Assembly (NCBI GenBank): GCA_046598735.1
Contig: JBKJIA010000075.1
Coordinates: 5,930 to 69,929 of the forward strand
Source of the DNA: Polyangiales bacterium
GTDB lineage: Bacteria > Myxococcota_A > Polyangia > Polyangiales > DASUME01
DNA length: 64,000 nt
Direction: 5' to 3'
Positions 21,363 to 49,701 of the stretch are shown here, piece by piece (the stretch's first letter is position 1; every line of letters begins with the position of its first letter). Below the pieces are notes generated by a model. The model saw only the letters and a program-made list of their open reading frames with translations. It was not told the DNA's origin and ran no database searches. The position numbers were made by a program, and so were the translations under genes.

Positions 21363-21377
21363 GCGCAGCGATTGCGC
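21363..21377. promoter_or_regulatory. palindrome GCGCA-GCGAT-TGCGC (candidate EBP binding site)
   Basis: Perfect 5+5 inverted arms, 42 bp upstream of the -24 element at 21419. A degenerate second copy (GCGCA-GAATC-CGCGA) lies at 21385..21399, 22 bp away centre to centre. Confidence 0.45.
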
Positions 21378-21418
21378 GTGATCCGCGCAGAATCCGCGAA
21401 TCCACCCGCATTACGAGG

Positions 21419-21434
21419 TGGCACCAAGTTTGCG
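21419..21434 (+). promoter_or_regulatory. candidate sigma-54 promoter ahead of the cco/cbb3 cluster
   Basis: TGGCAC-CAAGT-TTGCG, a full match to TGGCAC-N5-TTGC. Predicted TSS is at about 21445. Confidence 0.55.
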
Positions 21435-21449
21435 ATGGCGCCTGTCGAG

Positions 21450-22136
21450 ATGAATGGTCTGGTTGTCGCAGCGTTCTCCGGCGCAAGTCTCGCAGTCGTT
21501 AGCAGCGCACATTGCGCCGTGATGTGTGGGCCAGTGGTGATGGCTTCGAGCGCGCGCAGTGGCGGTGGTGGTTTACGCTACTTTAGCGGGCGCTTAGTCA
21601 CCTATACCCTCCTTGGTGCGCTCGCTGGCAGTAGTGGCCATCTGCTGACTTCCTTGGGGCCTACCAAGTGGATCGAAGCGGCTCTGTCATGGGCACTGGC
21701 CGTGGCGCTGCTCGCTTCTGCCGTGCGCTATCTGTCGCCAGCGCGTGTAGCCGCCCCGATCAAGCTTCACCGTAAGCCAAGAGTAAGCCTAGTCAGTCGA
21801 CTCTTGGCCGCCGTGGCGGATGATCCCCTGCTGCTCGGTGCGGCCACGGCGCTACTGCCCTGTGGCGTGCTGTTCACCGCGCTCGTAGCGGCCGCAGCCC
21901 TAAGATCTCCCGCGGCTGGCGCCATGGTCATGGCGACTTTTGCCAGTCTGTCTGGCCTTGCATTGATTGGTATGTCGAGCCTCGGACATCGGCTATCGCT
22001 CGGCGCGTCGGGACGTCGCGTGCTGGCCGTGGGTCTGCTTGCAGGCGCCGCGCTAATGATTTGGCGGCCCATCCCCATGTTGCGCAGCACGGGTAACGTG
22101 CCCGCCTGTCACGCGCACGTTGCAGAGGCGCATTAG
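21450..22136 (+). CDS. TauE/SafE- or DsbD_2-like membrane protein associated with cbb3 maturation clusters
   Basis: Polytopic membrane protein with the N-terminal SSAHCAVMCGP motif. ATG 21435 is an alternative start but lies upstream of the predicted TSS. Confidence 0.65.
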   Translation: MNGLVVAAFSGASLAVVSSAHCAVMCGPVVMASSARSGGGGLRYFSGRLVTYTLLGALAGSSGHLLTSLGPTKWIEAALSWALAVALLASAVRYLSPARVAAPIKLHRKPRVSLVSRLLAAVADDPLLLGAATALLPCGVLFTALVAAAALRSPAAGAMVMATFASLSGLALIGMSSLGHRLSLGASGRRVLAVGLLAGAALMIWRPIPMLRSTGNVPACHAHVAEAH

Positions 22137-22138
22137 TC

Positions 22139-24532: not shown

Positions 24533-24732
24533 CACTCTTACTGTTCATCGGTGCGGTCTGGGTGCTCTTCGCACTCGGCCTGTTCGCCTGGAGCTTGCTG
24601 CAGAAGAATCACGAGCACGCGGACCGCCTCGCGCTGCTTCCCCTTGAAGACAATTGGCACGATCGCGCCGCGGGAGCATTAGACGCGCTGCCCGGGCACG
24701 ACACGAAAGAGAGAAAGGCCCCAGTCCCATGA
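24520..24732 (+). CDS. ccoS: cbb3 oxidase maturation protein CcoS/FixS
   Basis: 70 aa with a single TM helix followed by an acidic tail. GTG start. ATGA overlap with ccoNO. Confidence 0.7.
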   Translation: MEVVALLLFIGAVWVLFALGLFAWSLLQKNHEHADRLALLPLEDNWHDRAAGALDALPGHDTKERKAPVP

Positions 24733-27098
24733 CGTCCGCATCCCTGGGCGCGCAGTCCACCGACCTGAGTGTCGGACCGCGCACCGTCACCTTCCGCTAC
24801 GACGACCGCATCGTAAACCAGTTCATCTGGGCATCGGTGGTCTTTGGGCTCGTTGGGCTCCTGGTGGGCCTGCTGATCGCGCTGCAGCTGGCCTTCTGGC
24901 AGGCCAACATGGGACCTTATCTAAGCTTTGGGCGGCTGCGTCCATTGCATACCAATGCAGTCATCTTTGCCTTCGTCGGCAATATGATCTTCGCGGGCGT
25001 TTACTACAGCACGCAACGTCTGCTCAAGACACGCATGGCCTCTGACGTACTGAGTCGCATTCACTTCTGGGGCTGGCAAGCGATCATCGTCGCGGCGGCC
25101 ATCACCCTTCCACTTGGCTTCACCCAGGCCAAGGAGTACGCGGAGCTCGAGTGGCCTATCGATCTCGCGATCGCAGTCATCTGGGTCATCTTCGCCATCA
25201 ACTTCTTTTGGACTTTGGCCCAGCGCCGCGAAAAGCAGCTGTATGTGGCGCTTTGGTTCTATATCGCCACGCTGATCGCCGTCACGGTCCTACACGTGAT
25301 CAACAGCCTCGCCATCCCCGTGTTCGCGTTCAAGAGTTACAGCGTGTTTGGAGGCGTGCAAGACGCCCTCGTGCAGTGGTGGTACGGGCACAACGCCGTC
25401 GCGTTCTTCCTCACCACCCCCGTGCTTGGCATCATGTACTACTTCTTGCCCAAGGCGGCAGATCGACCGGTCTTCTCCTATCGGCTTTCGATCATCCACT
25501 TCTGGGCGCTGGTATTCATGTACATCTGGGCGGGTCCTCACCATCTCTTGTACACGGCCCTGCCGGATTGGGCCCAGAGCCTCGGCATGGTCTTCAGTAT
25601 CATGTTGTGGGCCCCGAGCTGGGGTGGCATGTTGAACGGCCTACTTACCTTGCGGGGCGCCTGGCATAAGCTGCGCACGGATCCAGTGCTCAAATTCTTT
25701 GCAGCGGGTGTCACGTTCTACGGCATGGCCACCTTCGAAGGCCCCTTACTAAGCATCAAGTCGGTGAACGGCTTGGCGCACTATACCGATTGGATCGTGG
25801 GCCACGTACACGCAGGTGCCCTGGGCTGGAACGGCTTCATGGCCGCCGGCATGTTCTATTTTCTATTGCCGCGTCTCTATCGCACCACGCTGTATTCACG
25901 AGCCGCCGCGGACTTTCACTTCTACATCGGCACCGTCGGTATCCTGCTCTACGTTATCTCGATGTGGGTAAGTGGCATCACCCAGGGCCTCATGTGGCGC
26001 GCGGTCAACGAGGGCGGCGGGCTCATGTACCCGAACTTCGTAGAGACACTGCTCGCGATCAAGCCGATGTACTGGATGCGCCTGACTGGCGGATCGTTCT
26101 ACCTGATAGGCTTTCTGATCATGATCTGGAACCTGGTCATGACCGCACGCAGCGGCTCCCTGGCGGATGAAGAAGTCAGCACGATCGAGCTGCGCGATCC
26201 GACCCCGAAAACACCGTGGCAGGACATCGCCTTTGGCAAACCGGTCATCATCTCGGTCGTCATCTCCCTGCTATTTGCGCTATTTCCTTTCGTCGAACCC
26301 ATCGCCAACGTGGCGCTGATGGGTATGGTCGTGGGCATTGGTTTACTTGCATCTCTATCCCTGACTGAAAAGCGTCGCGACCGCCCCACTTGGCATGCGG
26401 TGCTGGAAGGACGCGCCGTATGGTTCACTTCCTTTACGGTCGTGGCAGTGCTCGCAGGCGGCGTCTCTGAGCTTATCCCCATCATCATCACGGGCCACCA
26501 GACCTTGGTGAGCACCAAGAACGTTCCCTACCGCGCCCTTGAGCTCGAAGGGCGCGACGTGTACGTGAAAGAGGGTTGCTACAACTGCCATTCTCAGATG
26601 ATTCGGCCGTTCAAATGGGAGACCGCGCGCTACGGCGAAGTTTCCACGGCCGACGAATCCATCTTTGATCACCCTTTCCAGTGGGGATCCAAGCGTACGG
26701 GACCGGACCTTGCACGCGTGGGCACCAAGTACAGCCCTGCCTGGCATTACCGTCATATGATCGACCCGCGCGAGATCTCGCCCGGCTCCAACATGCCGAG
26801 CTACGCGCACTTGGCCCACACTAAGATCGATTTTGGCACCTCGACCGACAAGCTGCGCGCGATGCGCTCGATAGGTGTTCCCTACTCCGCAGGACAGGTG
26901 GCCAATGCAAGCGCAGACGCGCGGCTGCTTGCCCAGCAAATCACGCAGGAGCTCGCCCAAAGTGGCGAAACGAACGTGGCGCCAGACAGCGAGCTCGTGG
27001 CCCTGATCAGCTTCTTGCAGCGCCTGGGTAAGCCCGGCCTTGCACCCCCGAGCGGCGTCGAAGCACCGCTCAAAGTCAGCCTGCGCGGAGGTGAGTGA
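24729..27098 (+). CDS. ccoNO: cbb3-type cytochrome c oxidase, fused subunits I and II (CcoN-CcoO)
   Basis: 12+ TM heme-copper oxidase core with His ligands. The C-terminal part carries the CcoO heme motif CYNCHSQMIRPF. Start is ATG 24729 in ORF 24654..27098. Confidence 0.9.
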   Translation: MTSASLGAQSTDLSVGPRTVTFRYDDRIVNQFIWASVVFGLVGLLVGLLIALQLAFWQANMGPYLSFGRLRPLHTNAVIFAFVGNMIFAGVYYSTQRLLKTRMASDVLSRIHFWGWQAIIVAAAITLPLGFTQAKEYAELEWPIDLAIAVIWVIFAINFFWTLAQRREKQLYVALWFYIATLIAVTVLHVINSLAIPVFAFKSYSVFGGVQDALVQWWYGHNAVAFFLTTPVLGIMYYFLPKAADRPVFSYRLSIIHFWALVFMYIWAGPHHLLYTALPDWAQSLGMVFSIMLWAPSWGGMLNGLLTLRGAWHKLRTDPVLKFFAAGVTFYGMATFEGPLLSIKSVNGLAHYTDWIVGHVHAGALGWNGFMAAGMFYFLLPRLYRTTLYSRAAADFHFYIGTVGILLYVISMWVSGITQGLMWRAVNEGGGLMYPNFVETLLAIKPMYWMRLTGGSFYLIGFLIMIWNLVMTARSGSLADEEVSTIELRDPTPKTPWQDIAFGKPVIISVVISLLFALFPFVEPIANVALMGMVVGIGLLASLSLTEKRRDRPTWHAVLEGRAVWFTSFTVVAVLAGGVSELIPIIITGHQTLVSTKNVPYRALELEGRDVYVKEGCYNCHSQMIRPFKWETARYGEVSTADESIFDHPFQWGSKRTGPDLARVGTKYSPAWHYRHMIDPREISPGSNMPSYAHLAHTKIDFGTSTDKLRAMRSIGVPYSAGQVANASADARLLAQQITQELAQSGETNVAPDSELVALISFLQRLGKPGLAPPSGVEAPLKVSLRGGE

Positions 27099-30529: not shown

Positions 30530-31803
30530 TACCTTACTCCGAATTGAGGCTGCCCTGCCCCCATGATCAACATCTTTGCCACTTCAAGCCGCCCGCGCTC
30601 TGCGGGGAATGCTTGCACCAGACCCATGATAAGATCGCGCACTGCGCGTGCGACCGGGCTGATGTTCATGGTGGCGCTGGTGCCACCGCATTTGAGCGCG
30701 TCGATGGCCACGTCGAAGCAGCGCTCGGTGACGGCGCCCTTGCACATGCGCCAGTGCATGATGACCTCGTCCTTGGGCAGCAAAGCGGGCTCACTCGTCT
30801 CGAGCTCCATTTGCCTGCGTGTCCATAGGTAGGCAGTCTCCAAATTGACCCGCATCTTACCTACCAGCTCCTGATGAAACGGACTTGTGCCGATGGGCTC
30901 GCCGGTGTCTTGGAACTTGTTCGTAGTAAGGTGTTGGATCGTGAAGTCATAGACGGCTTGTGCGCCTCCAAGGTAAGCCGAAGCCGCGGCCGCCTGATTG
31001 CCGACGAAAGAGCCGCGGCTCATCTGCATCATGCGTGTGAAGGCACCGGGCACCGTGAGCGCTTCAGTGTCAGGGATGAACACATTTTCCATCACGAGCC
31101 CGTGGGTGGCACTGGCGCGCATGCCGATCGCGTCCCACTTCACGCGCTCTCGCACGCCCGCGGCATTTCGCGGCACAAAGAAGAGCGCGAGCCCCTCGGC
31201 CGTGCTGTGGCCCTCGAGCTTGGCCGTGACGAGATACTCGTCTGCAACCCCCGTAGCGCAACCGAAGCTCTTCTCACCATTCAACAGCCAGCCGCCTCGA
31301 GTCTTCTTGGCTTCGGTCGAGATCGTGATCGCGTTGCCCGCATTCTTATTGGTTTCGGAGGCAAAATTGGCCAGCCACTTGCCCTCCCTTCCCATCTTGC
31401 ACAGCACCTTTTCTGCAAAGGGTTTGACGAGCGTTACCTCCTCCGCAGAGAACAGACCCGCTTCGATCGCTTCGAGCGCGAGCAAGCCGCGCGAGGCGCT
31501 CGAACAATGAAAGAAGAAGCTCAGCGCAGTCGACGGACAGGCCTGCGACATGGCATAGGTCGCCGCCATCAGGTCGCGCAGACCGCCGCCGAGTCCTCCG
31601 TAGGCAGTGGGTATGATCAGGCCGAACAGACCGGCTTCCCGTAAGGTTGCCACGTGGGACATGGGAAACTCGCCGCTGCGATCGGCCTCGGCCGCTTTCT
31701 CGCGCAGCGCTGGCAGCACCCGATCCACGCGCGCAGCGCGGCTGATTTCGACTTCGCTCATACGCTCGAGAAAGCGCATGGCAGTTACCCTCGTCTGGTT
31801 CAT
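30529..31803 (-). CDS. acyl-CoA dehydrogenase family protein
   Basis: ACAD-like N, middle and C domains by pattern. Start is ATG 31803, which gives an ATGA overlap with the upstream gene stop. Confidence 0.7.
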   Translation of the reverse strand: MNQTRVTAMRFLERMSEVEISRAARVDRVLPALREKAAEADRSGEFPMSHVATLREAGLFGLIIPTAYGGLGGGLRDLMAATYAMSQACPSTALSFFFHCSSASRGLLALEAIEAGLFSAEEVTLVKPFAEKVLCKMGREGKWLANFASETNKNAGNAITISTEAKKTRGGWLLNGEKSFGCATGVADEYLVTAKLEGHSTAEGLALFFVPRNAAGVRERVKWDAIGMRASATHGLVMENVFIPDTEALTVPGAFTRMMQMSRGSFVGNQAAAASAYLGGAQAVYDFTIQHLTTNKFQDTGEPIGTSPFHQELVGKMRVNLETAYLWTRRQMELETSEPALLPKDEVIMHWRMCKGAVTERCFDVAIDALKCGGTSATMNISPVARAVRDLIMGLVQAFPAERGRLEVAKMLIMGAGQPQFGVR

Positions 31804-32606
31804 GGTGCAGCCCCGCGATCCACTCCCCACAACGCGTCCACGAGCTGCGCGCCAAGGTCCTGACCTAACATCTCGAAAGCGAGGTCGTTGACAGGATCGC
31901 GACGCGCGACAGTCGAGCGCACGAAACGGTCTCGCGCCAAGAGCTGCGGTCGTTCCTCGAAGGGCACCGGCTCCGCTTGGTCGACGAGCTTGATCCAGTG
32001 GTCCATCAACTTATGTGCGTGTTGGCCAAGGTCTTCGATGAGGCCGAGGTCCGTCTGCCCCGAGTAGCAGGTATGGGCGGGCGAGAGGGCCACGCGCATA
32101 TACGTGCTCTGCGAGACGAAATAAGTCAGCCGTGGGTCGTTCCGCAACTTGATAAAGTCATGATTGAGCGCTTCGTAGTTGCGGTCGACATACTCAGGAT
32201 TCGTCCACAGGTCCACACGCGGCGGCATGTCCATAAAGGTAAAGAGCTGCGGCACGGTACCAAAGACGATAGTAAGGTGCGGCACGCGCACCTGCGGTCC
32301 AAGCCAGATGTTGAGGTGCTGATTGGTAAAGCCTTCTGTCGGGTTGCCAAGCCAGGACCACATGATCCAATCGATCTCAGGGCCACTAAAGCCGTTGATC
32401 GATCCGTTGTACTTACCATCGGGGCTCTGATAACTCTTCCACTTGGCACTGCCTGCGTGTGGAGTGAGCTCGAAACGGGCCTTGAGCTTGTCTACCAGAC
32501 TCGAGAGGATGCTCCAGGTCTTCTGGAATACGGCGCTGTTGTCGACGCCCTTGCCTGCAGCATACATCTCCTGGATCGTCTTCGTCGTAGTCGGTTGAAT
32601 CTGCAT
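31800..32606 (-). CDS. red chlorophyll catabolite reductase (RCCR)-like / bilin-reductase-superfamily protein
   Basis: 268 aa. Segments IDWIMWSWLG, LNIWLGPQVRVPHL, MDMPPRVDLWTNPEYVDRNY and YFVSQSTYMRVALSPAH run parallel to plant RCCR blocks as I recall them. This is recognised from memory and not verified by HMM. Confidence 0.45.
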   Translation of the reverse strand: MQIQPTTTKTIQEMYAAGKGVDNSAVFQKTWSILSSLVDKLKARFELTPHAGSAKWKSYQSPDGKYNGSINGFSGPEIDWIMWSWLGNPTEGFTNQHLNIWLGPQVRVPHLTIVFGTVPQLFTFMDMPPRVDLWTNPEYVDRNYEALNHDFIKLRNDPRLTYFVSQSTYMRVALSPAHTCYSGQTDLGLIEDLGQHAHKLMDHWIKLVDQAEPVPFEERPQLLARDRFVRSTVARRDPVNDLAFEMLGQDLGAQLVDALWGVDRGAAP

Positions 32607-32662: not shown

Positions 32663-32678
32663 TGCAAAGCCGATGCCG
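32663..32678 (-). promoter_or_regulatory. candidate sigma-54 promoter for RCCR-like/ACAD/monooxygenase operon
   Basis: Minus strand reads CGGCAT-CGGCT-TTGCA with correct spacing. Predicted TSS is about 46 nt upstream of ATG 32606. Confidence 0.5.
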
Positions 32679-32731: not shown

Positions 32732-32746
32732 GCGCACGAACTGCGT
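32732..32746. promoter_or_regulatory. near-palindrome GCGCA-CGAAC-TGCGT (candidate EBP site)
   Basis: One arm mismatch. Sits between the two divergent sigma-54 promoter candidates at 32663 and 32886. Confidence 0.35.
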
Positions 32747-32885
32747 GCAGCCCATCCAGTCACGCAAGACTCGCGCTGCGACTACGAACCTTACTGTGAC
32801 TGGGCACGCCATCCTGTGATGGGGGCAGCGGCACCGCGCACGGCCGCAACCGTGCATCGCCGGTTTCAGCGCGAGCCCGGCCTCT

Positions 32886-32901
32886 TGGCGCGGCTCCTGC
32901 A
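32886..32901 (+). promoter_or_regulatory. candidate sigma-54 promoter for USP-CBS-USP genes
   Basis: TGGCGC-GGCTC-CTGCA with correct GG-N10-GC spacing and two mismatches. Lies 72-87 nt upstream of GTG 32973. Confidence 0.45.
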
Positions 32902-32972
32902 ACAGACGGCAGCAATGGGCGCGGGCAACGACTTCGATGGAGTCGTTGTCAGCCCTTCGAGAAGGAGGCACT

Positions 32973-33407
32973 GTGGCAACCATCAAAAAAATTCTAAGCC
33001 CCGTCGATTTTTCCGACGCGGCCTGGCCCGCTATCCGTGCTGCGGAAGCGTTGGCCCACGAAACCGGGGCGGAGCTCACGCTCCTTCACGTCGTCGAGGA
33101 TGCATCGTACGCGTTCCCAGAAGGGGGCTATCTCTCGCCTCGCATCATCGAAGAGTATGAAGCGGCCATGGTCGCCAAACTGTCTGCGCTCGCCGCCGGG
33201 CTGCGCACGGACATCGCAGTGAGCGCGCGGACCGTGCACGGCGTCCCTTATCAAGCCATTGTCGACGCGGCAGAAAAGGAACACGCGAGTATGATAGTCA
33301 TGGGCACGCACGGACACAGTGGGCTGTCCCATCTATTTCTGGGAAGCGTGGCCGAGCGTGTGGTCCGTCTATCTAAAGTGCCGGTCTTGACGGTACGCAC
33401 TGCATAG
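32973..33407 (+). CDS. universal stress protein (UspA family)
   Basis: KKILSPVDFSD...MGTHGHSGLSHLFLGSVAERVVR...VPVLTV. GTG 32973 is preceded by GAAGGAGG. Confidence 0.85.
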   Translation: MATIKKILSPVDFSDAAWPAIRAAEALAHETGAELTLLHVVEDASYAFPEGGYLSPRIIEEYEAAMVAKLSALAAGLRTDIAVSARTVHGVPYQAIVDAAEKEHASMIVMGTHGHSGLSHLFLGSVAERVVRLSKVPVLTVRTA

Positions 33408-33441
33408 TAGCGTTTGCGCAAGCTACGCGGAGGGTAAGGAG

Positions 33442-38158: not shown

Positions 38159-39409
38159 ATGAGTTTCTTATCCTCTCAGGAAGCGCGTCTCGGCTTGGCG
38201 TTGGCCATTGGTTTACTAATCGGCACAGAGCGCGAACGCAGGCACGCCGAACGTGCCCGCAGAGGCCCTGCCGGCATGCGCTCTTTCGGCTTGGTCGGCT
38301 TCCTGGGCGGACTGTTCGGCTATCTGGGGTCGATGCCGCTCGTGACGACTGGCGCGGCTATCGTGGGCCTGTCGTCCATCGCAGCCTACGTGATGAACCG
38401 CGACGATCCGGATCGCGGCATGACCACGGAGCTTTCGCTGGTGGTCACGTACGGCTTGGGCGTGCTGGCGCTAAGCAACCCCACCCTGTCCGCAGGCGGG
38501 GCCGCGGTCGTCGCATCACTGCTCGCGTTTCGCGGTGGGTTGCACAAATTCGCCCAGGAAATCCTGAGCCAGGAGGAGCTGCATGACAGCCTGGTTTTCT
38601 TGCTGTTTGCGCTGGTCGTGTTACCCATTGCACCTGACGCGCAGGCAGGTCCCTACGGAGCCATCAACCCACAATCGCTGACGCGCTTGGTCGTGGTACT
38701 GATGTTCCTGACGGGCGTGGCGCATATCGCGCAGCGTTTGGTAGGGGCGCGCCTCGGTCTGACTCTCACAGGCTTCGTAGGAGGCTTCGTTTCGAGTAGC
38801 GCCACCATTGCACTCTTGGGTAGCTGGGCCAAAGAGCATCCCACTGCTTGGCGAAGCGCGGTGTCCGGCGCGCTGGCCTCGAGCGTGGCAACGATCGTTC
38901 AGTACTTCGTGATCATCTCTGTGGTCGACTCGCGGCTACTTCAGGTGCTCTTACCTTCCCTCGGCAGTGCAGCTGTTGTGGCAGTGCTGCTCACTGCTGC
39001 TTTCACCTGGTGGCAGGAGCCCGGAGACGCCCTGCCCGAGAAGTCAGGTCGTGCATTTCGCTTGTGGGCTGCGCTCGGATTTGCGCTCGTCTTCTCCCTG
39101 GTGAGCATCGCCTCAGCAGCGCTACGCGAGCGCATGGGCAGCGCCGGCATCTTGCTCGTGTCCACTCTGGCAGCCTTGGTGGACGCGCACTCCACGGCAG
39201 GCTCCGTCGCGGCGCAATACCGCGATGCAAGACTGGACGCGCACACCGTCCAGCTGGCGATCATCGCCGCGCTCTCGGCAAACACCCTGACCAAGGTCGT
39301 ACTCGCGTGGACGGGTAGGCAGGTCAAGTACGGGCTGTGCGTCACGGCTTCGGTGCTGTTGATCGCAGCCGCAGCATGGCTGGGCCTAATGGTGGTAGGC
39401 CCGCTCTGA
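38159..39409 (+). CDS. MgtC/SapB-like N-terminal domain plus DUF4010 membrane protein
   Basis: LALAIGLLIGTERERR motif and a polytopic membrane profile across 416 aa. Confidence 0.6.
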   Translation: MSFLSSQEARLGLALAIGLLIGTERERRHAERARRGPAGMRSFGLVGFLGGLFGYLGSMPLVTTGAAIVGLSSIAAYVMNRDDPDRGMTTELSLVVTYGLGVLALSNPTLSAGGAAVVASLLAFRGGLHKFAQEILSQEELHDSLVFLLFALVVLPIAPDAQAGPYGAINPQSLTRLVVVLMFLTGVAHIAQRLVGARLGLTLTGFVGGFVSSSATIALLGSWAKEHPTAWRSAVSGALASSVATIVQYFVIISVVDSRLLQVLLPSLGSAAVVAVLLTAAFTWWQEPGDALPEKSGRAFRLWAALGFALVFSLVSIASAALRERMGSAGILLVSTLAALVDAHSTAGSVAAQYRDARLDAHTVQLAIIAALSANTLTKVVLAWTGRQVKYGLCVTASVLLIAAAAWLGLMVVGPL

Positions 39410-39471: not shown

Positions 39472-39486
39472 GCGCAAAGCCTGCGA
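39472..39486. promoter_or_regulatory. near-palindrome GCGCA-AAGCC-TGCGA (candidate EBP site)
   Basis: One arm mismatch. About 105 bp upstream of the -24 element at 39592. A further GCGCAAAC half-site lies at 39503. Confidence 0.4.
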
Positions 39487-39591
39487 ATCCGAGCTCGCAA
39501 ACGCGCAAACGGATCGTCAGGTTTGGCGGCGAACGCGGCAACGCACGAACGTGGACCGCACTAGCTGCGGATCTGTCTCTATTTTTCAGCC

Positions 39592-39607
39592 TGGCACAAC
39601 GCCTGCA
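39592..39607 (+). promoter_or_regulatory. candidate sigma-54 promoter for Rieske oxygenase gene
   Basis: TGGCAC-AACGC-CTGCA, one mismatch. Predicted TSS is about 53 nt upstream of ATG 39671. Confidence 0.55.
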
Positions 39608-39670: not shown

Positions 39671-40813
39671 ATGTACATTAACTTCTGGTACGCGATGGTA
39701 GAAAGTAAGAACGTGAGCCACGACAAGCCTTCGCACGTGCGGAGGCTGTACCAGGACTTCGTGCTGTGGCGCGATGACCAGGGCAAAGTGCATTGTCTGC
39801 ACGATGTGTGCTCCCACCGCGGCGCCAAGCTGTCCAAGGGCGAAATCCGAAACAACTGCGTACAGTGTCCTTACCATGGCTGGCGGTTCCAAGGCTCGGG
39901 CGATGTCGAGTACATTCCTAGCCTCGGCAAGGACGGACAAAAGTTCCCGCAGCGCACACGCATCGACTCGTATCCAGTCGAAGAGCACTACGGAGTCATC
40001 TTCGCTTTTTTGGGCGATCTGCCCGAGAGCGAGCGCCCACCCTTACTGTTGCCAAATCGCAACCCCAAGGCTCAGGATTATTCAGGTAAGCAATGGCGGC
40101 ATGCAACGCTGGGCTGGGATATCAACAGCAACTACGAGCGCTGCGTCGAAAATGGGCTCGACCCGTCGCACAACGAGTTCGTGCATCCTTCTCACGGCTA
40201 TCAGGGACAGAACCTCGACGAGTATTATGTGCCTGAGTACGACGTAGAGCATCACCCCTGGGGCCAGAGCTTCATGGTCGACTTCAATGCTCCCCCCTCC
40301 ACCGCAGGTGTGGCGGCCCAGGCCGGTCGCACCGAAGGCGGCAAGCTCAACGCGGGCGCAGGGCACAACGGACCGAACCAAGTATGGACCTATATCCACA
40401 TTACCCCCGAAATGTGGGCCCATCAGTACTTATACGAGACGCCAGTGGATAGCCGCCATACGCACGCTATCAACGTAAGCCTGGTAAACTTCGTCGACGC
40501 AGAGACCAGCGACGACGATATCAACGCGATGAATGCCTATATCGCGGGGCAGGACGTGGTGGTGCTCAACGAGGTCATGCCAGTAACGACGCCCGAAGAC
40601 GCCTCTTCGGAGGTCATGATGCCGTCAGACAAGTGTGTGCTGGAGTATCGCCGCTATCTCAAGCGCTGGGATAGGCGCGGATGGCGTATCGATCACAAAG
40701 CCGTCGAGGCCACGTTGGGCGAAAAGGTATACGCCATCCCCTCGCCGCGCAGGCGCACTGAAAAAGGCTGGGTATTTCCGCCTATCCCCCTTGTACCTGG
40801 ACATGAAGACTGA
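39671..40813 (+). CDS. Rieske [2Fe-2S] non-heme-iron oxygenase (alpha-subunit-only type; VanA/KshA/PAO-like class)
   Basis: Rieske CSHRGAKLS...CPYHGWRF and the mononuclear iron motif NGLDPSHNEFVH. Confidence 0.8.
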   Translation: MYINFWYAMVESKNVSHDKPSHVRRLYQDFVLWRDDQGKVHCLHDVCSHRGAKLSKGEIRNNCVQCPYHGWRFQGSGDVEYIPSLGKDGQKFPQRTRIDSYPVEEHYGVIFAFLGDLPESERPPLLLPNRNPKAQDYSGKQWRHATLGWDINSNYERCVENGLDPSHNEFVHPSHGYQGQNLDEYYVPEYDVEHHPWGQSFMVDFNAPPSTAGVAAQAGRTEGGKLNAGAGHNGPNQVWTYIHITPEMWAHQYLYETPVDSRHTHAINVSLVNFVDAETSDDDINAMNAYIAGQDVVVLNEVMPVTTPEDASSEVMMPSDKCVLEYRRYLKRWDRRGWRIDHKAVEATLGEKVYAIPSPRRRTEKGWVFPPIPLVPGHED

Positions 40814-42838: not shown

Positions 42839-44413
42839 CTAGGCCGCAATGTAGAAACGTGCGATCGTGCCGCCACCCTCGCGCGCCACGAGCTCGATCT
42901 CGCCGCCATGCTGCGCGACGATCTTACGGACGATGGCAAGGCCGAGGCCGGTGCCACCCTGCTTGCTGGTCACGAAAGGTTGGAAGGCCTCGTCGATCAC
43001 CGCAGCGGAGACGCCGGGACCGTCGTCACAGACAGCGATCGATACGCCACCTTGTTCGCGCGGCTGAGCTTGGATTTCCACGTGGCCATAACCCCGCTCG
43101 GATAACGCCTCGATGGCATTACCAAGTAAATTGATCACCACCTGTTTCAGGCGATCCGCGTCCGCACGCATACTCAGCGTGGGCTCGGATACGCGAATCG
43201 TGAGGGTCACGCCCACGCTCTGGGCAAGGGGCTGTTTGAGCGTGACAACGGACTCGAGCAGCTCTGACACGGAGCAGGCCCGCCTATCGAGTTGGCGGGG
43301 CCGCGCGAGGTTCAAGAAGTCGTCGAGCAAAACAGACAGCCTATCGAGCTCGGCGCGCACGAGCTCCGCGGGCTCCACGACTTGCTTGCTCAGCGCGGGG
43401 CTCGCAGCAGACATGCCCGCACTCGCAGGATCCACCGCGCGTCGCGCGCGCCGGATCAACAGCTCGAGCTGAAGCTTGGCCGCATTGAGCGGGTTGCGAA
43501 TTTCGTGGGCTAAGCTCGTGGTGAGCGTGCCCATCACTGCCATCGCTTCGGTCTCCGCAGTCTTACGCTCGAGCTCCAAGCGCGCCGTGATGTCGATCCC
43601 TACGGCTAGCACGAGCGAGTCCGAACCCGAGCGTCCTTCCATGCTCGCGAGCGATGCGTGCGCTGTGGTCCTTACTATTCCGCCTGCAGGTGTCTGTTCC
43701 TTCATGCGCGTCTGCAACGGCATGAACGTCCAGCGAATCACACGGGCGCGCTTACCTCCGTCATGGTGACCTTCGTGATCGCGGACAGGCTCGCCCGCGA
43801 TCGCTTGCTCGATCGCTTGTGCCAACTTGGGTGCACAATCAGCGCGAGCGAGCGAGGTGAACTCGCGTCCCACCAAGGCCGACTGGCTCACGCCTAAACG
43901 CTCCGCCGCAAAGCGATTGGCAAAGCGGATGGTTCCTTCGCGGCTCAAGCCCAGAATGCAGGCCTCTACCGTTTCGACCATGCTGCGATACAGCGCTTCC
44001 GAAGCTAACAAGCGCTGACTGAGCGCCTGCTTTTCGCGCTTGAGCGCAACTTGCGCCAGGGCTCGCTTGACCAGCGTGACGAGATGCTCAGGCTCGAAGG
44101 GCTTGGGTATGTACGCATATACGCCACGCCGAATCGCTTCGATCGCGCTGTGCAAGGTCGCATTGCCTGTCATCAACAGGATCTCACCGTAAGGGCTGTA
44201 GCTGCGCAATCGCGGCAGCAGATCGAGCCCGCTTTCGTTGCCAGCGAGACCGATGTCGACGATCGCAAGATCGAAACCGCCATCGGACGCAGCAAGATTG
44301 GCGGAGGCAGCATCCGCTGCGAACACGACTTCGATGCCCTCATCTTGCAGCATTTCGGCGATGTTTTCGGCCAGCGCCAGGTTGTCTTCCACCACCAAGA
44401 CGCGCTCGTTCAC
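42839..44413 (-). CDS. hybrid sensor kinase (REC-PAS-HisKA-HATPase)
   Basis: N-terminal receiver, PAS-like middle region, H-box SLAHEIRNPL and GTGLGLAIV. Confidence 0.85.
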   Translation of the reverse strand: MNERVLVVEDNLALAENIAEMLQDEGIEVVFAADAASANLAASDGGFDLAIVDIGLAGNESGLDLLPRLRSYSPYGEILLMTGNATLHSAIEAIRRGVYAYIPKPFEPEHLVTLVKRALAQVALKREKQALSQRLLASEALYRSMVETVEACILGLSREGTIRFANRFAAERLGVSQSALVGREFTSLARADCAPKLAQAIEQAIAGEPVRDHEGHHDGGKRARVIRWTFMPLQTRMKEQTPAGGIVRTTAHASLASMEGRSGSDSLVLAVGIDITARLELERKTAETEAMAVMGTLTTSLAHEIRNPLNAAKLQLELLIRRARRAVDPASAGMSAASPALSKQVVEPAELVRAELDRLSVLLDDFLNLARPRQLDRRACSVSELLESVVTLKQPLAQSVGVTLTIRVSEPTLSMRADADRLKQVVINLLGNAIEALSERGYGHVEIQAQPREQGGVSIAVCDDGPGVSAAVIDEAFQPFVTSKQGGTGLGLAIVRKIVAQHGGEIELVAREGGGTIARFYIAA

Positions 44414-45135
44414 GCGGCGTCTCCGCGCAGCGTGGCGAGAGCATTCACCAGGGCATCAGGAGCAAAAGGCTTCACCATTAGTTGCGCGCGCGTACCGAGC
44501 TCGGCAATCAATGGTGTGTCGTGCTCATCCACATCGAAGCCCGTCACCAAGATGACTGACAGATTGGAAGTGCGGGCAAGCTCCGCCGCGAAGTCCGCAC
44601 CATCGCCGTCGGGGAGTCGGATGTCGATGATCGCAGCCACTAAGGCTTTTCCGAGCACGCGGCGCGCGCTTGCCAATGAATGGGCGCAGTGCACGCGATA
44701 CCCGCTTTCGGTCAGCGCTTCGGACAAGGCCGCGCTGAGCTCCAGATCATCGTCCACGAACAGCACGTCGCGATTGTCGCCACCTTCCTGTTCGAGTGCC
44801 TGCAGAAGCTCAGGTAAGGGTACTGGCTTCATCAGCACCCTGCGCACACCGGCCGCTAGTGCAGAGGCGATGCGATCGTCTTCCGTATAGGCCGTCATCA
44901 GAATGAAAAGCGTGTGCGGATGGGTCTCACGCAGGCGCCGATGCAGACCGACTCCGTCGAGCCCCGGCATGCGTACGTCGAGCAAGGCCACGTCGAATTT
45001 CTTGTCTTCGGATTCGGCCAGCGCACGCGCGGGGTCATCGAACACGCATACCTCGTAGCCCTCAAGCTCGAGTATTTCGCCCAAGTCCTCGGCCAAGGCT
45101 CGGTTGTCATCCACGATCAAGGCTCGCCGCGCCAT
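44410..45135 (-). CDS. response regulator with two tandem receiver domains (REC-REC, no output domain)
   Basis: Two CheY-like modules (ALIVDDNRAL...LLDVRMPGLDG and VLFVDDDLEL...IIDIRLPDGDG). Confidence 0.85.
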   Translation of the reverse strand: MARRALIVDDNRALAEDLGEILELEGYEVCVFDDPARALAESEDKKFDVALLDVRMPGLDGVGLHRRLRETHPHTLFILMTAYTEDDRIASALAAGVRRVLMKPVPLPELLQALEQEGGDNRDVLFVDDDLELSAALSEALTESGYRVHCAHSLASARRVLGKALVAAIIDIRLPDGDGADFAAELARTSNLSVILVTGFDVDEHDTPLIAELGTRAQLMVKPFAPDALVNALATLRGDAA

Positions 45136-45138
45136 CAG

Positions 45139-46341
45139 CTACTCCGCAAAAGCCTGGGGAAATCGCACCTCGAAGCGTGCGCCGCCTAAACTACTGCGCA
45201 AGGCGCGAATGTCACCGCCGTGCTTCTCCGCAACACGCCGACATAGCGCAAGCCCCAGCCCAAGCCCGCGCGCACGTGTGGTGGCAAGCGGCTCGAACAA
45301 ACGGTGGCGAAGCTCTTCGGCGATGCCTTCACCCGTGTCCTCGACAGACAAGATCATCGTTGCCGCTTCGCGGGCCACCTGCACACGCACCTTACGGTCT
45401 GCTAGCTCGCTGAGCGCCTGAATGGCGTTGGTCACGAGATTCACGATCAGGTGGCGGAGCTGCTTAACATCCAGCTTGGCGTCGGGCAGATCCGCTGGCA
45501 CGTCGATAGTGATCTCCACCGTATCGCGCAGGGGAACTTCATCGATCACGGAATGTAAGAGTGCTTCGATCGCTACAGGCGCAGTGACAAGCGGTCGATC
45601 GCGGGCCAGCTCGAGCAGGTCGGAAATGATATTAGTACATGCGGTAAGTTGCTCGCCCAAGCGGCGAGTATGCCGCTCGATGCTGCTATCGCCGACGGGA
45701 ATTCGCTTCTTCAACAAATGCAGCGAGGTTTCCATCACGGCCAGCGGGTTACGCAGCTCGTGCCCCACGAAGCCCGCAAGCTGGCCCAGGGTCGCAAGCC
45801 GTTCACTATCGCGGATGCGCGTGGTGTAGTCCTCGGAATAGGTCTGCAGCATGATCGCAAGCTCGAGATCACAGATTTTATCGAGTGCTTGATGTGCAAG
45901 GCTGCGCCGCTCGGCCACAAACTCCGAGCTGTCAACAGCGGTATGCAGGCCCTCACGCACGATGTTCATGGCCCCAAGCACGTACCGTTGATCGAGTTGA
46001 ATGCGTACGTGCGTGCGACCAATTTTTGCGCGCAACCTGAGATAGTCGACGCCATAGACGCCCGACACCACGCCTTCGAGCCACTGCCTCAAAAACGTCT
46101 TCTGACGTTCAATCTGGGGGGTTCCCCCCTTGAATACGGACAAGGCTGTTGGGTTTTGCTGAATCGCCTCATAGAAACGATCGACGATGCCCGCAAAAGC
46201 GGGCTCCACGCTGGGTCGCAAATCCGCGAGCACCTGAGCGTGGGCCTGACTAAACCCCACGTAGCGCTTAAGCTCTTCGAGAAATTCCTCTTCCCACACT
46301 CGGGCAGACGCCTTTCCTGCCTTGATTGACGGCCCTATCAT
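45139..46341 (-). CDS. globin-coupled sensor histidine kinase (protoglobin domain-HisKA-HATPase)
   Basis: N-terminal globin-sensor pattern (FYEAIQQNP...IGRTHVRIQLDQRYVLGA), then H-box FVGHELRNPL and GLGLGLALC. Confidence 0.75.
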   Translation of the reverse strand: MIGPSIKAGKASARVWEEEFLEELKRYVGFSQAHAQVLADLRPSVEPAFAGIVDRFYEAIQQNPTALSVFKGGTPQIERQKTFLRQWLEGVVSGVYGVDYLRLRAKIGRTHVRIQLDQRYVLGAMNIVREGLHTAVDSSEFVAERRSLAHQALDKICDLELAIMLQTYSEDYTTRIRDSERLATLGQLAGFVGHELRNPLAVMETSLHLLKKRIPVGDSSIERHTRRLGEQLTACTNIISDLLELARDRPLVTAPVAIEALLHSVIDEVPLRDTVEITIDVPADLPDAKLDVKQLRHLIVNLVTNAIQALSELADRKVRVQVAREAATMILSVEDTGEGIAEELRHRLFEPLATTRARGLGLGLALCRRVAEKHGGDIRALRSSLGGARFEVRFPQAFAE

Positions 46342-46383: not shown

Positions 46384-46399
46384 TGCAACCTGCGGGCCA
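46384..46399 (-). promoter_or_regulatory. candidate sigma-54 promoter for globin-kinase operon
   Basis: Minus strand reads TGGCCC-GCAGG-TTGCA, one mismatch. Predicted TSS is about 32 nt upstream of ATG 46341, which has a GAAGG RBS. Confidence 0.55.
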
Positions 46400-46604
46400 G
46401 GCCCATGGACGGCCTCGGAAAGAGGCTCACCGCCTGCTGGCGCCCTCTGTGCAGAGAAACGCACGCCCCACCCGGTACGTGTCGGCGTCGGGTTTGCGCG
46501 CTACACCGCCTTGCGATGCAAGGCTTGCGTCTGCAACGGGTACCGACGTACCCAAGCAACGAGCGCTCAATCGAGCACTTTCACTTCAAGAAAAAGGACG
46601 CCCT

Positions 46605-48071
46605 GTGAGCTCGCCGCCATCCTCCTCATCCGCTGCCAGCGTCGCCAACCCGGGAGGGTTTAAAGGACGCGTGCTCGTGGTGGATGACGAAGCCAATGCT
46701 CGCAATGCTTTGGCTGAGCTTCTGCGCGACGAAGGCTACGTCACCGAGGTGGCGGCCGACGGCAGTCAGGCCCTACGCGTCTTGGAATCGTTCGATCCTC
46801 ACGTCGTGCTAACCGATCTGAAGATGCCGGTGCTCGACGGCCTATCACTGCTCGAACAAGGGAAACTCTTAGTACCCCATGCCGCCTTCGTCGTGATGAC
46901 TGCGTTTGCAAGCATCGACACCGCCGTGCAAGCGATCAAGCGCGGAGCGGAAAATTACCTGACCAAACCCCTCGATCTCGACGCCGTGTCCGCACTGGTG
47001 GGACGTGCCTGCGAAAAAGCGTTGCTTTCGCGCGAGATGAGCGAGCTGCGACTCCGGCTCGAGCAGCGCTTCAGCGTGGGCAACATTCTCGGCGATCATC
47101 CTTCGATGCAGCGGCTCCTCAAAAGCGTCGCGCAGGTGGCCCCGAGCCGCGCAACGGTGCTCATCCACGGCGAAAGTGGTACCGGCAAGGAGCTTATCGC
47201 GGCAGCGATCCATCAAAACTCGCCGCGCAAGGATAAGGCTTTCGTGCGCCTCAACTGCGCAGCGCTGGCCGAGAGCCTGCTCGAATCGGAGCTATTCGGC
47301 CACGAAAAAGGCTCCTTTACGGGGGCGGTCACACGTCGCGAAGGTCGCTTCAAGCAGGCCCACGGCGGGACGCTTTTCCTGGACGAGGTCAGCGAGATTC
47401 CCCTTTCGCTGCAAGTCAAACTATTACGCTTCCTGCAAGAAAAGCAGTTCGAGCGCGTGGGCGGCAACGAAACCCTGACGGTCGACGTACGCATCGTCGC
47501 CGCCAGCAATCGCGACCTCAAAGAGCGGATGAAAGACGGTCTGTTTCGCGAGGATTTGTACTATCGGCTGAACGTGGTGCAGGTAGATGTTCCACCCTTG
47601 CGCGTTCGCAAGAGCGATATCCCGCTTTTGGCACAGCACTTCTTGGTCCGCTTTGCGGACGAAAATGGCCGCGACATCACCGGCTTTAGCGACGCAGCGC
47701 TGCGCCTGATCTTGTCTTACAGTTGGCCTGGCAACGTGCGCGAGCTCGAGAACGCGGTCGAGCGCGCAGTCGTCATGTGCGACGGTGAGCAGATCCAACC
47801 TGAGCATTTGCCGATGCACGGCCAGGAGACCATCCGGGATACCGAGCTGCTCATTCCCGGCATCACCATGGCCGAGCTCGAACGCCTAGCGATTCTGCAG
47901 ACGCTGGAGTCGGTGTCCGGTTCCACGGCCAAGGCGGCGGAGCTGCTCGGCATCAGTCGCCGAAAAATCCAATATCGCCTACGCGAGTGGGGGATGGGCG
48001 AGAGCGGCGACGGCGGCGAGGTCACCCATGATCAGGATAGCGCTGACGCGCTCGAATCAGGAGACGACTGA
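46605..48071 (+). CDS. sigma-54-dependent response regulator (NtrC family), paralog B
   Basis: Same architecture as 34937..36397 and about 85% identical over the part compared by eye. Start GTG 46605 (AAGGA RBS) in ORF 46326..48071. Confidence 0.9.
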   Translation: MSSPPSSSSAASVANPGGFKGRVLVVDDEANARNALAELLRDEGYVTEVAADGSQALRVLESFDPHVVLTDLKMPVLDGLSLLEQGKLLVPHAAFVVMTAFASIDTAVQAIKRGAENYLTKPLDLDAVSALVGRACEKALLSREMSELRLRLEQRFSVGNILGDHPSMQRLLKSVAQVAPSRATVLIHGESGTGKELIAAAIHQNSPRKDKAFVRLNCAALAESLLESELFGHEKGSFTGAVTRREGRFKQAHGGTLFLDEVSEIPLSLQVKLLRFLQEKQFERVGGNETLTVDVRIVAASNRDLKERMKDGLFREDLYYRLNVVQVDVPPLRVRKSDIPLLAQHFLVRFADENGRDITGFSDAALRLILSYSWPGNVRELENAVERAVVMCDGEQIQPEHLPMHGQETIRDTELLIPGITMAELERLAILQTLESVSGSTAKAAELLGISRRKIQYRLREWGMGESGDGGEVTHDQDSADALESGDD

Positions 48072-48149: not shown

Positions 48150-49460
48150 TCACGTGAACACGTAGTGCCGGTGGAGCGCTGCTGCCATCAGCTCGCCGCG
48201 AAAGCTTGGATGGGCAAGCGCGGCCAGGGCGTACACGCGCTCGCGAACACTCTTGCCCCATAAGTCTGCGATTCCGTACTCGGTCACCACATAGCGAACA
48301 TCGCCCCGTGTGGTCACTACCGCGGAACCTTCTTCGAGCGCCGCTTGAATGCGACTAACGCTGCCGCCCTTGGCCGTGGAGGGTAGCGCGATGATCGCCT
48401 TACCACCCTTGCTGCGCGACGCGCCCCGCACGAAGTCCACTTGCCCGCCGATGCCCGAGAAAAAATGACCCAGCAGCGTGTCAGACACCACTTGTCCTGT
48501 CAGGTCCACGGCCAGGGCCGAGTTGATCGCGATCATCTGGCTGTTGCGTGCGATCACGAAAGGGTCGTTGGTAAAGTCAGAAGCGCGGAGCTCGATCGCG
48601 GGATGATCGTCTACCCATGAATAGAGCGCCTGACTACCCATCACGAACGAAGTCACCATCTTATGGGGTAATAATGTCTTCTGCTTGCCGTTCACTACAC
48701 CCGCTTCAGCCAGGCGCATGACACCGTCCGATAGCATCTCAGTATGAATACCGAGGTCATGATGTTGTGCGAGCGCAGCCAAGACCGCGTCTGGTATTTG
48801 TCCTATACCCGTCTGCAAGGTGGCGCCGTTCGGCACAAGACTCGCAACATGCGCACCAATCGCGCGCTCCACGTCGCTCGGTTCGTCGCAGTTCGCGATC
48901 AAGAGCGGGCGTTCGATCGGGATCAACCAATCGATATCCGCCACGGCCAAGAAAGAATCGCCATGCGTACGCGGCATGTGAGGGTTCACTTCCGCGATCA
49001 CCAGCTGCGCCGTGTCCACCGCGGCGCGCACCACATCGACCGAGACACCCAGACTGACGAAGCCGTGTACATCGGGCGGACTGACCTGAATCAACGCGAC
49101 GTCGATGCCGACTCGCCCGCTGCGAATGAGCTCTGGGATCTCGGACAGGAACACGGGCATGAAGTCCGCGCGGCCTAGGTGCACGGCCTCCCGTACGTTC
49201 GCGCCGATGAAGAACGCGCGATGTCGGAAGCGCGCGGCAAATTCAGGTCGCACGTAAGGTGCGGGACCGAGCGTGAGCAGGTGAACGATCTCGTTGTCAT
49301 GCAGGTGGTCGCCTTGCTCTACGAGCGCGTTGACGAGGCTTAGCGGTTCCGCGGCGCCGGAGCCGATCATGATGCGCTGTCCCGCGCGCACGGATAGCAG
49401 CGCCTCGCCGGGCGTGGTCACCTTGGATCGATAGGTCTGCTGCCAATCTGAGTCTTTCAC
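48150..49460 (-). CDS. acetyl-CoA hydrolase/transferase family protein (4-hydroxybutyrate CoA-transferase-like)
   Basis: 436 aa. Family pattern includes GIGQIPDAV, SGIGGQVDF and TEYGIADL. Confidence 0.8.
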   Translation of the reverse strand: MKDSDWQQTYRSKVTTPGEALLSVRAGQRIMIGSGAAEPLSLVNALVEQGDHLHDNEIVHLLTLGPAPYVRPEFAARFRHRAFFIGANVREAVHLGRADFMPVFLSEIPELIRSGRVGIDVALIQVSPPDVHGFVSLGVSVDVVRAAVDTAQLVIAEVNPHMPRTHGDSFLAVADIDWLIPIERPLLIANCDEPSDVERAIGAHVASLVPNGATLQTGIGQIPDAVLAALAQHHDLGIHTEMLSDGVMRLAEAGVVNGKQKTLLPHKMVTSFVMGSQALYSWVDDHPAIELRASDFTNDPFVIARNSQMIAINSALAVDLTGQVVSDTLLGHFFSGIGGQVDFVRGASRSKGGKAIIALPSTAKGGSVSRIQAALEEGSAVVTTRGDVRYVVTEYGIADLWGKSVRERVYALAALAHPSFRGELMAAALHRHYVFT

Positions 49461-49497
49461 GTATTTGTGCTCTCCTGCGGATCAATCGTCGTGTTGG

Positions 49498-49513
49498 TGC
49501 ACGGAGCACGCCA
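49498..49513 (-). promoter_or_regulatory. candidate sigma-54 promoter for CoA-transferase gene
   Basis: Minus strand reads TGGCGT-GCTCC-GTGCA with correct spacing and three mismatches. Predicted TSS is about 27 nt upstream of ATG 49460. Confidence 0.4.
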
Positions 49514-49576
49514 AGGCAGTGGTCACTCGCTTCCTAGTCCCCGTTCGTCCGGCATCCGTAGGAAAGAACGCGGCCT

Positions 49577-49591
49577 GCGCAAATCCTGCGC
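49577..49591. promoter_or_regulatory. palindrome GCGCA-AATCC-TGCGC (candidate EBP site)
   Basis: Perfect arms. Followed by GCGCA-AATCA-TGCCA at 49607..49621 and a GCGCAAAC half-site at 49628. Lies in the divergent region between the CoA-transferase and triple-USP genes. Confidence 0.45.
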
Positions 49592-49701
49592 CCAAAGCCG
49601 CGCACCGCGCAAATCATGCCAATATCTGCGCAAACACGAACATTGCGGGGCGACACCTGGCTTGCGCTTTCCGGTCGCACCAGCGTGTCTATCTCCAAGA
49701 G

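Follow-up and report, generated by a model that had tools for sequence, protein, structure and literature searches.

The closest described relative of the system analysed here is the NmpRSTU phosphorelay of the myxobacterium Myxococcus xanthus (Bretl et al. 2018, PMC6211767; McAllister et al. 2025, J Bacteriol 207:e00280-24, PMC11841059). It comprises the protoglobin kinase NmpU, the double-receiver protein NmpT, the REC-HisKA-CA hybrid kinase NmpS and an NtrC-like output, NmpR, whose binding consensus is GCGCA-N5-TGCGC (PMC11841059). Here we describe a window of 64,000 nucleotides from an uncultured Polyangiales bacterium (GenBank assembly GCA_046598735.1, contig JBKJIA010000075.1, positions 5,930 to 69,929), in which the same palindromic dyad recurs upstream of sigma-54 promoters and two closely related sigma-54 enhancer-binding proteins (EBPs), EBP1 and EBP2, are encoded. 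Observed site positions, enrichment, geometry, conservation across genomes, a recognition-helix link and domain architectures make it very likely that an NmpR-type sigma-54 activator uses GCGCA-N5-TGCGC as its enhancer site, a role that we predict from sequence.

In M. xanthus, binding by NmpR was demonstrated by electrophoretic mobility shift assays with truncated and mutated probes, and the activity of lacZ reporters depended on the dyads and the sigma-54 site alike (PMC11841059). Five of the seven NmpR-bound promoters have 14-15 nt between their 15-bp sites (29-30 bp start to start), the gap being 5 nt at pilR (20 bp start to start) and 24 nt at nmpU; every bound site keeps an intact GCA-N5-TGC core (PMC11841059). 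The regulon takes in a CBS-led operon with nmpR, the nmpU-nmpT-nmpS genes, whose nmpU promoter is NmpR-dependent, a universal stress protein (USP) gene, a P-type ATPase with cbb3 oxidase, hemN-hemerythrin, mxan_1578 and pilR (PMC11841059).

Results

Dyads between genes, upstream of sigma-54 promoters

Exact copies of GCGCANNNNNTGCGC (GCGCA-N5-TGCGC) occur three times in the window, at 21363-21377, 36460-36474 and 49577-49591. There are 26 one-mismatch dyads, including those at 32732-32746 and 39472-39486, so all five sites named in a preliminary description of this DNA were recovered. Genes were mapped from Pfam domain matches; GC3-based gene calling discriminated poorly at the ~62% GC of this DNA. 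On the resulting map all five named dyads lie between genes, the KTSC gene starting at about 21208 rather than at 21427 as in the open reading frame (ORF) list. A GG-N10-GC element lies downstream of each at a start-to-start distance of 34-154 bp, bearing out the earlier placement upstream of -24/-12 elements. The window has about a dozen intergenic GG-N10-GC strings that agree with the sigma-54 consensus in at least 9 of 11 positions; dyad offsets were counted from the T of the -24 TGG. The dyads lie upstream of sigma-54 promoters in the orientation of the downstream gene, the exception being a triple-USP promoter with a non-canonical -12.

Non-coding DNA makes up 9.8% of the window and contains all three perfect dyads, against 0.086 expected (P ~5e-4, first-order Markov simulations of non-coding segments). 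Dyads with at most one mismatch number eight in non-coding DNA against 1.44 expected, and none of 2,000 simulations reached seven. The suggestion that so many intergenic copies are unlikely by chance is therefore upheld for this fraction of the window. The half-site GCGCAAA has 11 of its 24 window copies in non-coding DNA.

A two-site geometry was present at seven promoter regions of the window, with start-to-start spacings of 29, 30, 30, 31, 31, 30 and 30 bp; several of the partner sites are weak (2-3 mismatches). The GCA-N5-TGC core is intact in the three perfect and both named one-mismatch sites. Second sites previously noted at 21385 (+22 bp) and 49607 (+30 bp), and a half-site at 49628, are indeed present. 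We located further sites at 21334 (one mismatch, 29 bp upstream of 21363), 32762, 36490, 46485/46516 and 53711.

An Nmp-like signalling module

By Pfam, the window is rich in oxygen- and stress-related genes: CcoI and a cbb3 oxidase, six USP genes, CBS and CBS-hemerythrin proteins, WS/DGAT, a Rieske oxygenase, an RpoH-like sigma-70-family factor, multihaem cytochromes and three EBPs. EBP1 (34937-36397, minus strand) and EBP2 (46605-48071, plus strand) are response regulators of the NmpR type. Both, like EBP3 (17616-18977, minus strand), join a receiver (REC) domain to a sigma-54 interaction AAA+ domain and a Fis-type helix-turn-helix (HTH) domain, HTH_8. EBP1 and EBP2 are 80% identical, have the recognition helix GISRRKIQYRL in common and are nearly identical across the HTH region, with receiver domains that differ at several positions; EBP3 is 42% identical and carries the helix GFDRRTLYRKL. 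None of the EBPs reaches an NCBIfam equivalog cut-off (with the AtoC model, for instance, the score is 525 where 714 would be needed), and they are therefore not AtoC, ZraR or NtrC proper.

EBP2 is divergent from a minus-strand operon that reproduces the nmpU-nmpT-nmpS gene order and domain architectures. Its products are an NmpU-like protoglobin kinase (45139-46341; Protoglobin, HisKA and HATPase_c in Pfam), an NmpT-like protein of two receiver domains (44410-45135; two Response_reg stretches) and an NmpS-like hybrid kinase (42839-44413; N-terminal receiver, PAS, HisKA and HATPase_c). The best PDB match for the globin domain of the sensor is 5ohe (AfGcHK), and the proximal-histidine segment reads LRAKIGRTHVRI in the window kinase and LRCRIGRMHVRI in NmpU. 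Primer-derived peptides of M. xanthus NmpR and NmpU align with EBP1/EBP2 and with the window kinase, the NmpR fragments fitting EBP1 and EBP2 better than EBP3. Judged by synteny, these fragments, operator identity and regulon content, EBP1 and EBP2 are candidate orthologues of M. xanthus NmpR (MXAN_4240), with indirect support from the finding, described below, that the dyad accompanies this helix type only.

EBP3 is paired with its own HAMP histidine kinase (17616-20085, minus strand). A sigma-54-like element on the same strand, CGGCACGTTCCATGCA (17494-17509), precedes a small hypothetical gene and one of the OmpA family and is without NmpR-type dyads, which points to a separate sigma-54 circuit.

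The dyad and its regulator in related loci

A scan for EBP1 relatives yielded 80 loci (1.2 Mb), the closest coming from Polyangiales, Sandaracinaceae and other Myxococcota metagenome-assembled genomes (MAGs). In the approximate non-coding DNA of the 36 closest loci, GCGCA-N5-TGCGC ranked first of 60 same-composition palindromic dyads, with 8 copies versus at most 2. When all possible 5-mer palindromes with gaps of 0-12 were enumerated without bias, it was again first upstream of sigma-54-like sites (15/68 versus 1/68 controls), and its own nested forms CGCAG-N3-CTGCG and GCAGA-N1-TCTGC followed.

Around sigma-54-like sites, perfect dyads were concentrated at -100 to -51 in close loci (13 of 27) and at -150 to -51 in distant ones (12 of 19), with a flat profile for five control dyads. 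Tandem pairs fell at 29-31 bp in 18 cases and at 21-23 bp in six, and the proximal dyad mostly started 45-90 bp upstream of the -24 T. Inner positions that had not been selected extend the symmetry, giving GCGCAR-N3-YTGCGC in the related loci.

The combination of dyad and sigma-54 promoter tracks the recognition helix of the regulator: it was found in 31 of 61 loci with an SRR(K/T)IQYRLKEW-type helix and in 0 of 19 with other helices (Fisher P = 1.6e-5). Genes downstream of such promoters encode globin kinases, CBS-hemerythrin, CBS, USP, CcoI (as in L036, where a CcoI homologue follows a dyad pair), hemerythrin, EBPs and RpoH-like sigma factors. In seven loci (L008, L016, L018, L022, L033, L034 and L042) the dyad, a sigma-54 promoter, a homologous sigma factor and the EBP follow one another in this order, the sigma-factor gene standing immediately before that of the NmpR-type EBP; this suggests that a cascade in which sigma-54 leads to an alternative sigma factor is conserved. 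The RpoH-like member in the window (36609-37421, plus strand) scores below every NCBIfam equivalog cut-off. Footprinting of seven window intergenic regions against the 80 loci gave one alignable counterpart, the nmpU-EBP2 spacer of L004, which was uninformative because 88% identity is too close.

In aggregate, the common helix of EBP1 and EBP2, the ranking of the dyad in related loci, its position and pairing, its link to one helix type and its identity with the M. xanthus NmpR consensus support the preliminary proposal that it is the predicted enhancer of the duplicated EBPs.

Two side observations came from the same loci. In L054, from Candidatus Polarisedimenticolia (Acidobacteriota), the perfect dyads GCGCAGAATCTGCGC and GCGCAGACTTTGCGC stand at -109/-78 from a strong sigma-54 element (7714, minus strand), and the adjoining EBP is 51% identical with a variant helix, ISPRTIQYK; the operator may thus extend beyond Myxococcota. 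Several single MAGs each hold two different NmpR-type loci (L003/L004, L007/L024, L030/L032 and L014/L055), so regulator duplication seems common in the group and not specific to the window.

Promoter map of the window

In front of the cco operon, the sigma-54 element TGGCACCAAGTTTGCG (21419-21434, plus strand) is preceded within 21334-21399 by GCGCAGATCCTTCGC at 21334 (one mismatch, -85), the perfect GCGCAGCGATTGCGC at 21363 (-56) and GCGCAGAATCCGCGA at 21385 (two mismatches, -34), spaced 29 and 22 bp. This promoter would drive genes for DsbD_2 (~21451-22136), the CcoI P-type ATPase, a fused CcoNO, CcoP and CcoG (to 29260). A single 814-aa ORF (24654-27098, plus strand) holds both COX1 (CcoN, aa 52-481) and FixO (CcoO, aa 581-793), and the cbb3 subunits CcoN and CcoO therefore appear fused.

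At 32732-32776, GCGCACGAACTGCGT (32732, one mismatch, core intact) and ACGCAAGACTCGCGC (32762, two mismatches) are spaced 30 bp and face two promoters. They lie at -68/-98, a canonical geometry, from the minus-strand sigma-54-like element CGGCATCGGCTTTGCA (32663-32678), and at -154/-124 from the plus-strand element TGGCGCGGCTCCTGCA (32886-32901). The former is assigned to genes for a red chlorophyll catabolite reductase (RCCR)-like protein, an acyl-CoA dehydrogenase and an FAD monooxygenase (32606 down to 29351), and the latter to USP-CBS-USP genes (32937-34403). The RCCR-like gene (31800-32606, minus strand), which heads its operon behind the dyad pair at -98/-68, matches the plant-type family PF06405 with E = 4.5e-18. 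In the 34-bp gap between the first USP gene (32937-33407) and the CBS gene (33442-33867) there is a perfect 8-bp palindrome, TTGCGCAA (33413-33420), which holds an NmpR half-site yet falls outside any 15-bp dyad.

A further pair, the perfect GCGCAAATGGTGCGC at 36460 and GTGAAAGACCTGCGC at 36490 (two mismatches), spans 36460-36504 between divergent promoters, again with 30-bp spacing. From the minus-strand sigma-54-like element TGGAACGGGCTTTGCT (36415-36430), predicted to drive EBP1 and a USP gene (34503-34940), the offsets are -44/-74. EBP1 is accordingly placed under its own dyad and sigma-54 promoter and is predicted to be autoregulated; orthologous loci carry both upstream of the EBP. From the plus-strand element TGGCACAGCCGCTGCA (36572-36587) the offsets are -112/-82, and the genes downstream encode the RpoH-like sigma factor (36609-37421), a USP (37468-38085) and MgtC/DUF4010 (38159-39409).

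Upstream of the Rieske oxygenase gene (39671-40813), GCGCAAAGCCTGCGA at 39472 (one mismatch, core intact) is followed 31 bp on by the weak partner GCGCAAACGGATCGT at 39503 (three mismatches; region 39472-39517). The sigma-54 element is TGGCACAACGCCTGCA (39592-39607, plus strand), with the 39472 dyad at -120.

The nmpU-, nmpT- and nmpS-like genes would be driven by the minus-strand sigma-54 element TGGCCCGCAGGTTGCA (46384-46399). Its weak dyad pair (46485-46530, spacing 31 bp), read on the minus strand, consists of ACGCAAGCCTTGCAT at 46516 (-131; three mismatches, GCA-N5-TGC core intact) and GCGCAAACCCGACGC at 46485 (-100; two mismatches). L004, the closest relative, preserves the two dyads without change, and perfect dyads lie upstream of the globin-kinase genes of L005 and L006.

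Ahead of the triple-USP gene (~49703-51030) and WS/DGAT (51132-52607), the region 49577-49635 contains the perfect GCGCAAATCCTGCGC at 49577 (-81), GCGCAAATCATGCCA at 49607 (-51; two mismatches, core intact) and the half-site GCGCAAAC at 49628, spaced 30 and 21 bp. The probable sigma-54 element is TGGCTTGCGCTTTCCG (49658-49673, plus strand).

The CBS-hemerythrin gene (52664-53536) would be transcribed from the minus-strand sigma-54 element TGGCACGGCGCGTGCT (53592-53607), which has three weak dyads of two mismatches each at 53638, 53681 and 53711 (53638-53725; offsets -45, -88 and -118). Two of these contain half-sites listed in the preliminary description, and that part of the list stands; its other two half-sites, at 10622 and 10634, do not. 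The latter belong to TGGCGCAATCATCGCGCAA (10619-10637, plus strand), a segment between two hybrid kinase genes that includes half-sites, a one-mismatch dyad and a weak sigma-54-like string. We rejected them as NmpR sites: the site, mapped at 10623, has neither a partner dyad nor a promoter at the usual distance, and overlaps the weak sigma-54-like string.

Convincing dyads were not seen in the window site map at the promoters 46438 (EBP2), 53636, 17509 and 6824, so a dyad does not accompany every sigma-54 promoter of the window, contrary to what had been supposed.

Beyond these promoters, large multihaem c-type cytochromes with MtrC/MtrF-like domains are encoded at 53861-63462 (plus strand), interspersed with two proteins without a Pfam match (58618-59508 and 59502-60764). 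The cluster hints at extracellular electron transfer.

Evidence against the assignment and alternative explanations

Several observations weigh against assigning the dyad to an NmpR-type activator. Over the whole window, 0.89 perfect dyads are expected and 11 of 100 dinucleotide-preserving shuffles reach three; this count is not significant, and the earlier chance estimate of well under one copy per 64 kb was too low. Among same-composition palindromes, the dyad is the most frequent within the genes of related loci too (34 copies), so that sequence alone is insufficient to define a site. Thirty of the 61 loci with the helix type show no dyad-promoter pair, many of them on short or truncated contigs. 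NmpR peptide tags were absent from the best 120 EBP2 homologues, all Polyangiales-type proteins at least 69% identical and none of them M. xanthus NmpR itself, and a 46-aa chimeric NmpR tag query gave no candidate.

Other difficulties concern individual promoters. EBP2's own promoter has no dyad, and the -12 of the 49658 element reads TTCC rather than the canonical TTGC. We called it a sigma-54 promoter mainly because its dyads are at canonical distance; it may be a sigma-54 promoter of unusual form, or else the real promoter escaped recognition. Several partner sites are weak, with 2-3 mismatches, and M. xanthus promoters with mismatches in both dyads are not bound by NmpR (PMC11841059). The assignments of nmpUTS, CBS-hemerythrin, 36490 and 32762 are therefore uncertain, and we list nmpUTS and CBS-hemerythrin as tentative targets.

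Of the competing explanations, the one that survives best is that only one paralogue uses the dyad, the other having diverged in partner kinase or promoter subset, or acting as a competitor or heteromer partner. Only EBP1 has its own dyad and sigma-54 promoter, while EBP2 adjoins the nmpUTS-like genes without a dyad upstream; divergence would also fit the receiver-domain differences and the retention of two paralogues in several MAGs. Identical recognition helices and near-identical HTH regions imply, on the other side, that both EBPs should read the same DNA. We regard a single user as possible but rather unlikely, and as a refinement of the NmpR-type explanation rather than a replacement for it.

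It is improbable that the dyad is a real operator read by some other regulator, whether EBP3, another HTH_8/Fis-type protein (RegA/PrrA-like) or a repressor. The gene for EBP3 lies at 2.4 kb from the cco dyads, but the EBP3 helix differs and the promoter on its side, 17509, is without dyads. The RegA/PrrA box has GCG-N9-CGC as its outer bases, a resemblance that would favour such a reader; as for a RegA-type regulator, nothing beyond receiver-domain matches was found in the window. Across the related loci the dyad-promoter pair co-occurs only with EBPs of the SRR(K/T)IQYRLKEW helix, and NmpR binds the same sequence in M. xanthus.

Chance products of a GC-rich genome, with the motif picked after the sequence had been viewed, are a still weaker explanation and one that we consider very improbable. 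The non-significant whole-window count, the commonness of GCGC palindromes and the frequency of the dyad inside related-locus genes all speak for it. Against it stand the non-coding excess, the first rank in an unbiased enumeration of independent loci, the sharp positional peak beside flat controls, the fixed pair spacing and an identical consensus defined experimentally in another myxobacterium. That the dyads are structural elements of DNA or RNA (hairpins, REP-like repeats or terminators) is barely credible: inverted repeats of 5 bp around a 5-nt spacer might fold into a small hairpin, but the stem is marginal, the sites lie upstream of promoters and not at gene 3' ends, no T runs follow, and it is the arms and the 30-bp pair spacing that are conserved, not the spacer.

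Discussion

With the dyad taken as the operator of an NmpR-type activator, the window would hold a complete oxygen-sensing phosphorelay of the NmpRSTU type, made up of NmpU-, NmpT- and NmpS-like proteins and two EBP outputs. In the mechanism that we propose by analogy with M. xanthus, the O2-bound globin kinase would hold the hybrid kinase off; as O2 falls, the globin kinase would switch off and release the hybrid kinase to phosphorylate one or both EBPs. EBP dimers would then occupy paired dyads 29-31 bp apart (start to start), with the proximal site 44-100 bp from the -24, and assemble into an AAA+ ring that opens the promoter bound by sigma-54 holoenzyme. Binding and activation are experimentally established in M. 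xanthus; by analogy, EBP1 and EBP2 would bind these particular sites. We infer low oxygen as the signal, and likewise which paralogue would act where.

Predicted targets are the CcoI/cbb3 operon, the USP/CBS operons, CBS-hemerythrin, the Rieske oxygenase and the triple-USP/WS-DGAT operon, together with the RCCR-like/acyl-CoA dehydrogenase operon, the RpoH-like sigma factor, the nmpUTS-like operon and EBP1 itself. About seven operons of an uncultured Polyangiales-like myxobacterium would thereby gain a regulator, a likely low-oxygen signal sensed by a haem kinase, and a mechanism. At least two orders of Myxococcota share the NmpR operator defined in M. xanthus, and the motif is therefore usable for regulon prediction in MAGs.

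The motif, the regulator family and the biological theme are already published, and the window is a new instance in a different myxobacterial order. What goes beyond the published Nmp system is the duplication of the regulator, a conserved RpoH-like sigma-factor target, the predicted WS/DGAT, Rieske and RCCR-like operon targets, and the spread beyond Myxococcaceae. In the Nmp literature that we searched, we did not find duplicated regulators, the RpoH-like, WS/DGAT, Rieske or RCCR-like targets, or the Acidobacteriota dyads. A broader proposition, for and against which we see equal grounds, is that duplication and rewiring have turned the NmpR-type oxygen relay of Polyangiales and Sandaracinaceae into a larger dormancy-like programme. 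Such a programme would include a direct RpoH-like factor cascade, storage-lipid synthesis by WS/DGAT, multiple USPs and the Rieske oxygenase, would converge functionally on the mycobacterial DosR regulon, and would rely on an operator/regulator pair reaching beyond Myxococcota. The additions to the published Nmp system would extend a recently described system and leave views on how such systems work unchanged.

Comparison with known systems

The likeness to DosR/DevR of Mycobacterium tuberculosis is one of function only: there, USPs, a CBS protein and a WS/DGAT-type triacylglycerol synthase are controlled by a two-component output that responds to hypoxia. The USP/hypoxia parallel with DosR has been drawn before (PMC11841059). 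DosR differs in being a NarL/LuxR-type regulator that acts at sigma-70 promoters with a different operator and different sensors.

The classical upstream activating sequences of NtrC, NifA and DctD have a like architecture, with tandem dyads that share one face of the helix and stand 50-150 bp ahead of a -24/-12 promoter, and with dimers that assemble into an AAA+ ring. The NtrC site TGCACC-N5-GGTGCA and the NifA site TGT-N10-ACA both differ from the window dyad, and the signal differs too, being oxygen perceived through haem rather than nitrogen or dicarboxylates.

Another comparison is with the AfGcHK system of Anaeromyxobacter sp. Fw109-5 (PDB 5ohe/5ohf/6otd), whose globin domain the window sensor matches best and in which a double-receiver partner is encoded adjacent. 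The genes regulated by the Anaeromyxobacter system are described as unknown (PMC11841059), whereas in the window a regulon can be predicted. The placement of a regulator gene divergent from nmpUTS is also as described for Anaeromyxobacter and not for M. xanthus (PMC11841059).

Set against M. xanthus Nmp itself, the window system, known from its sequence alone, has two paralogous regulators instead of one and an NmpS-like protein that carries a PAS domain. Its predicted targets additionally include the RpoH-like sigma factor, the Rieske oxygenase, the triple-USP and WS/DGAT genes and the operon of RCCR-like, acyl-CoA dehydrogenase and monooxygenase genes; unlike in M. xanthus, no pilR or hemN target was seen within the window. 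The two systems agree in the dyad consensus, in tandem spacing of ~30 bp and in placement within ~100 bp upstream of sigma-54 promoters, as they do in the architectures and order of the signalling genes and in an NtrC-type output regulator. The target classes predicted for the window are likewise those of M. xanthus: CBS, USP, P-type ATPase with cbb3 oxidase, hemerythrin, the nmpU operon and the operon of the regulator itself.

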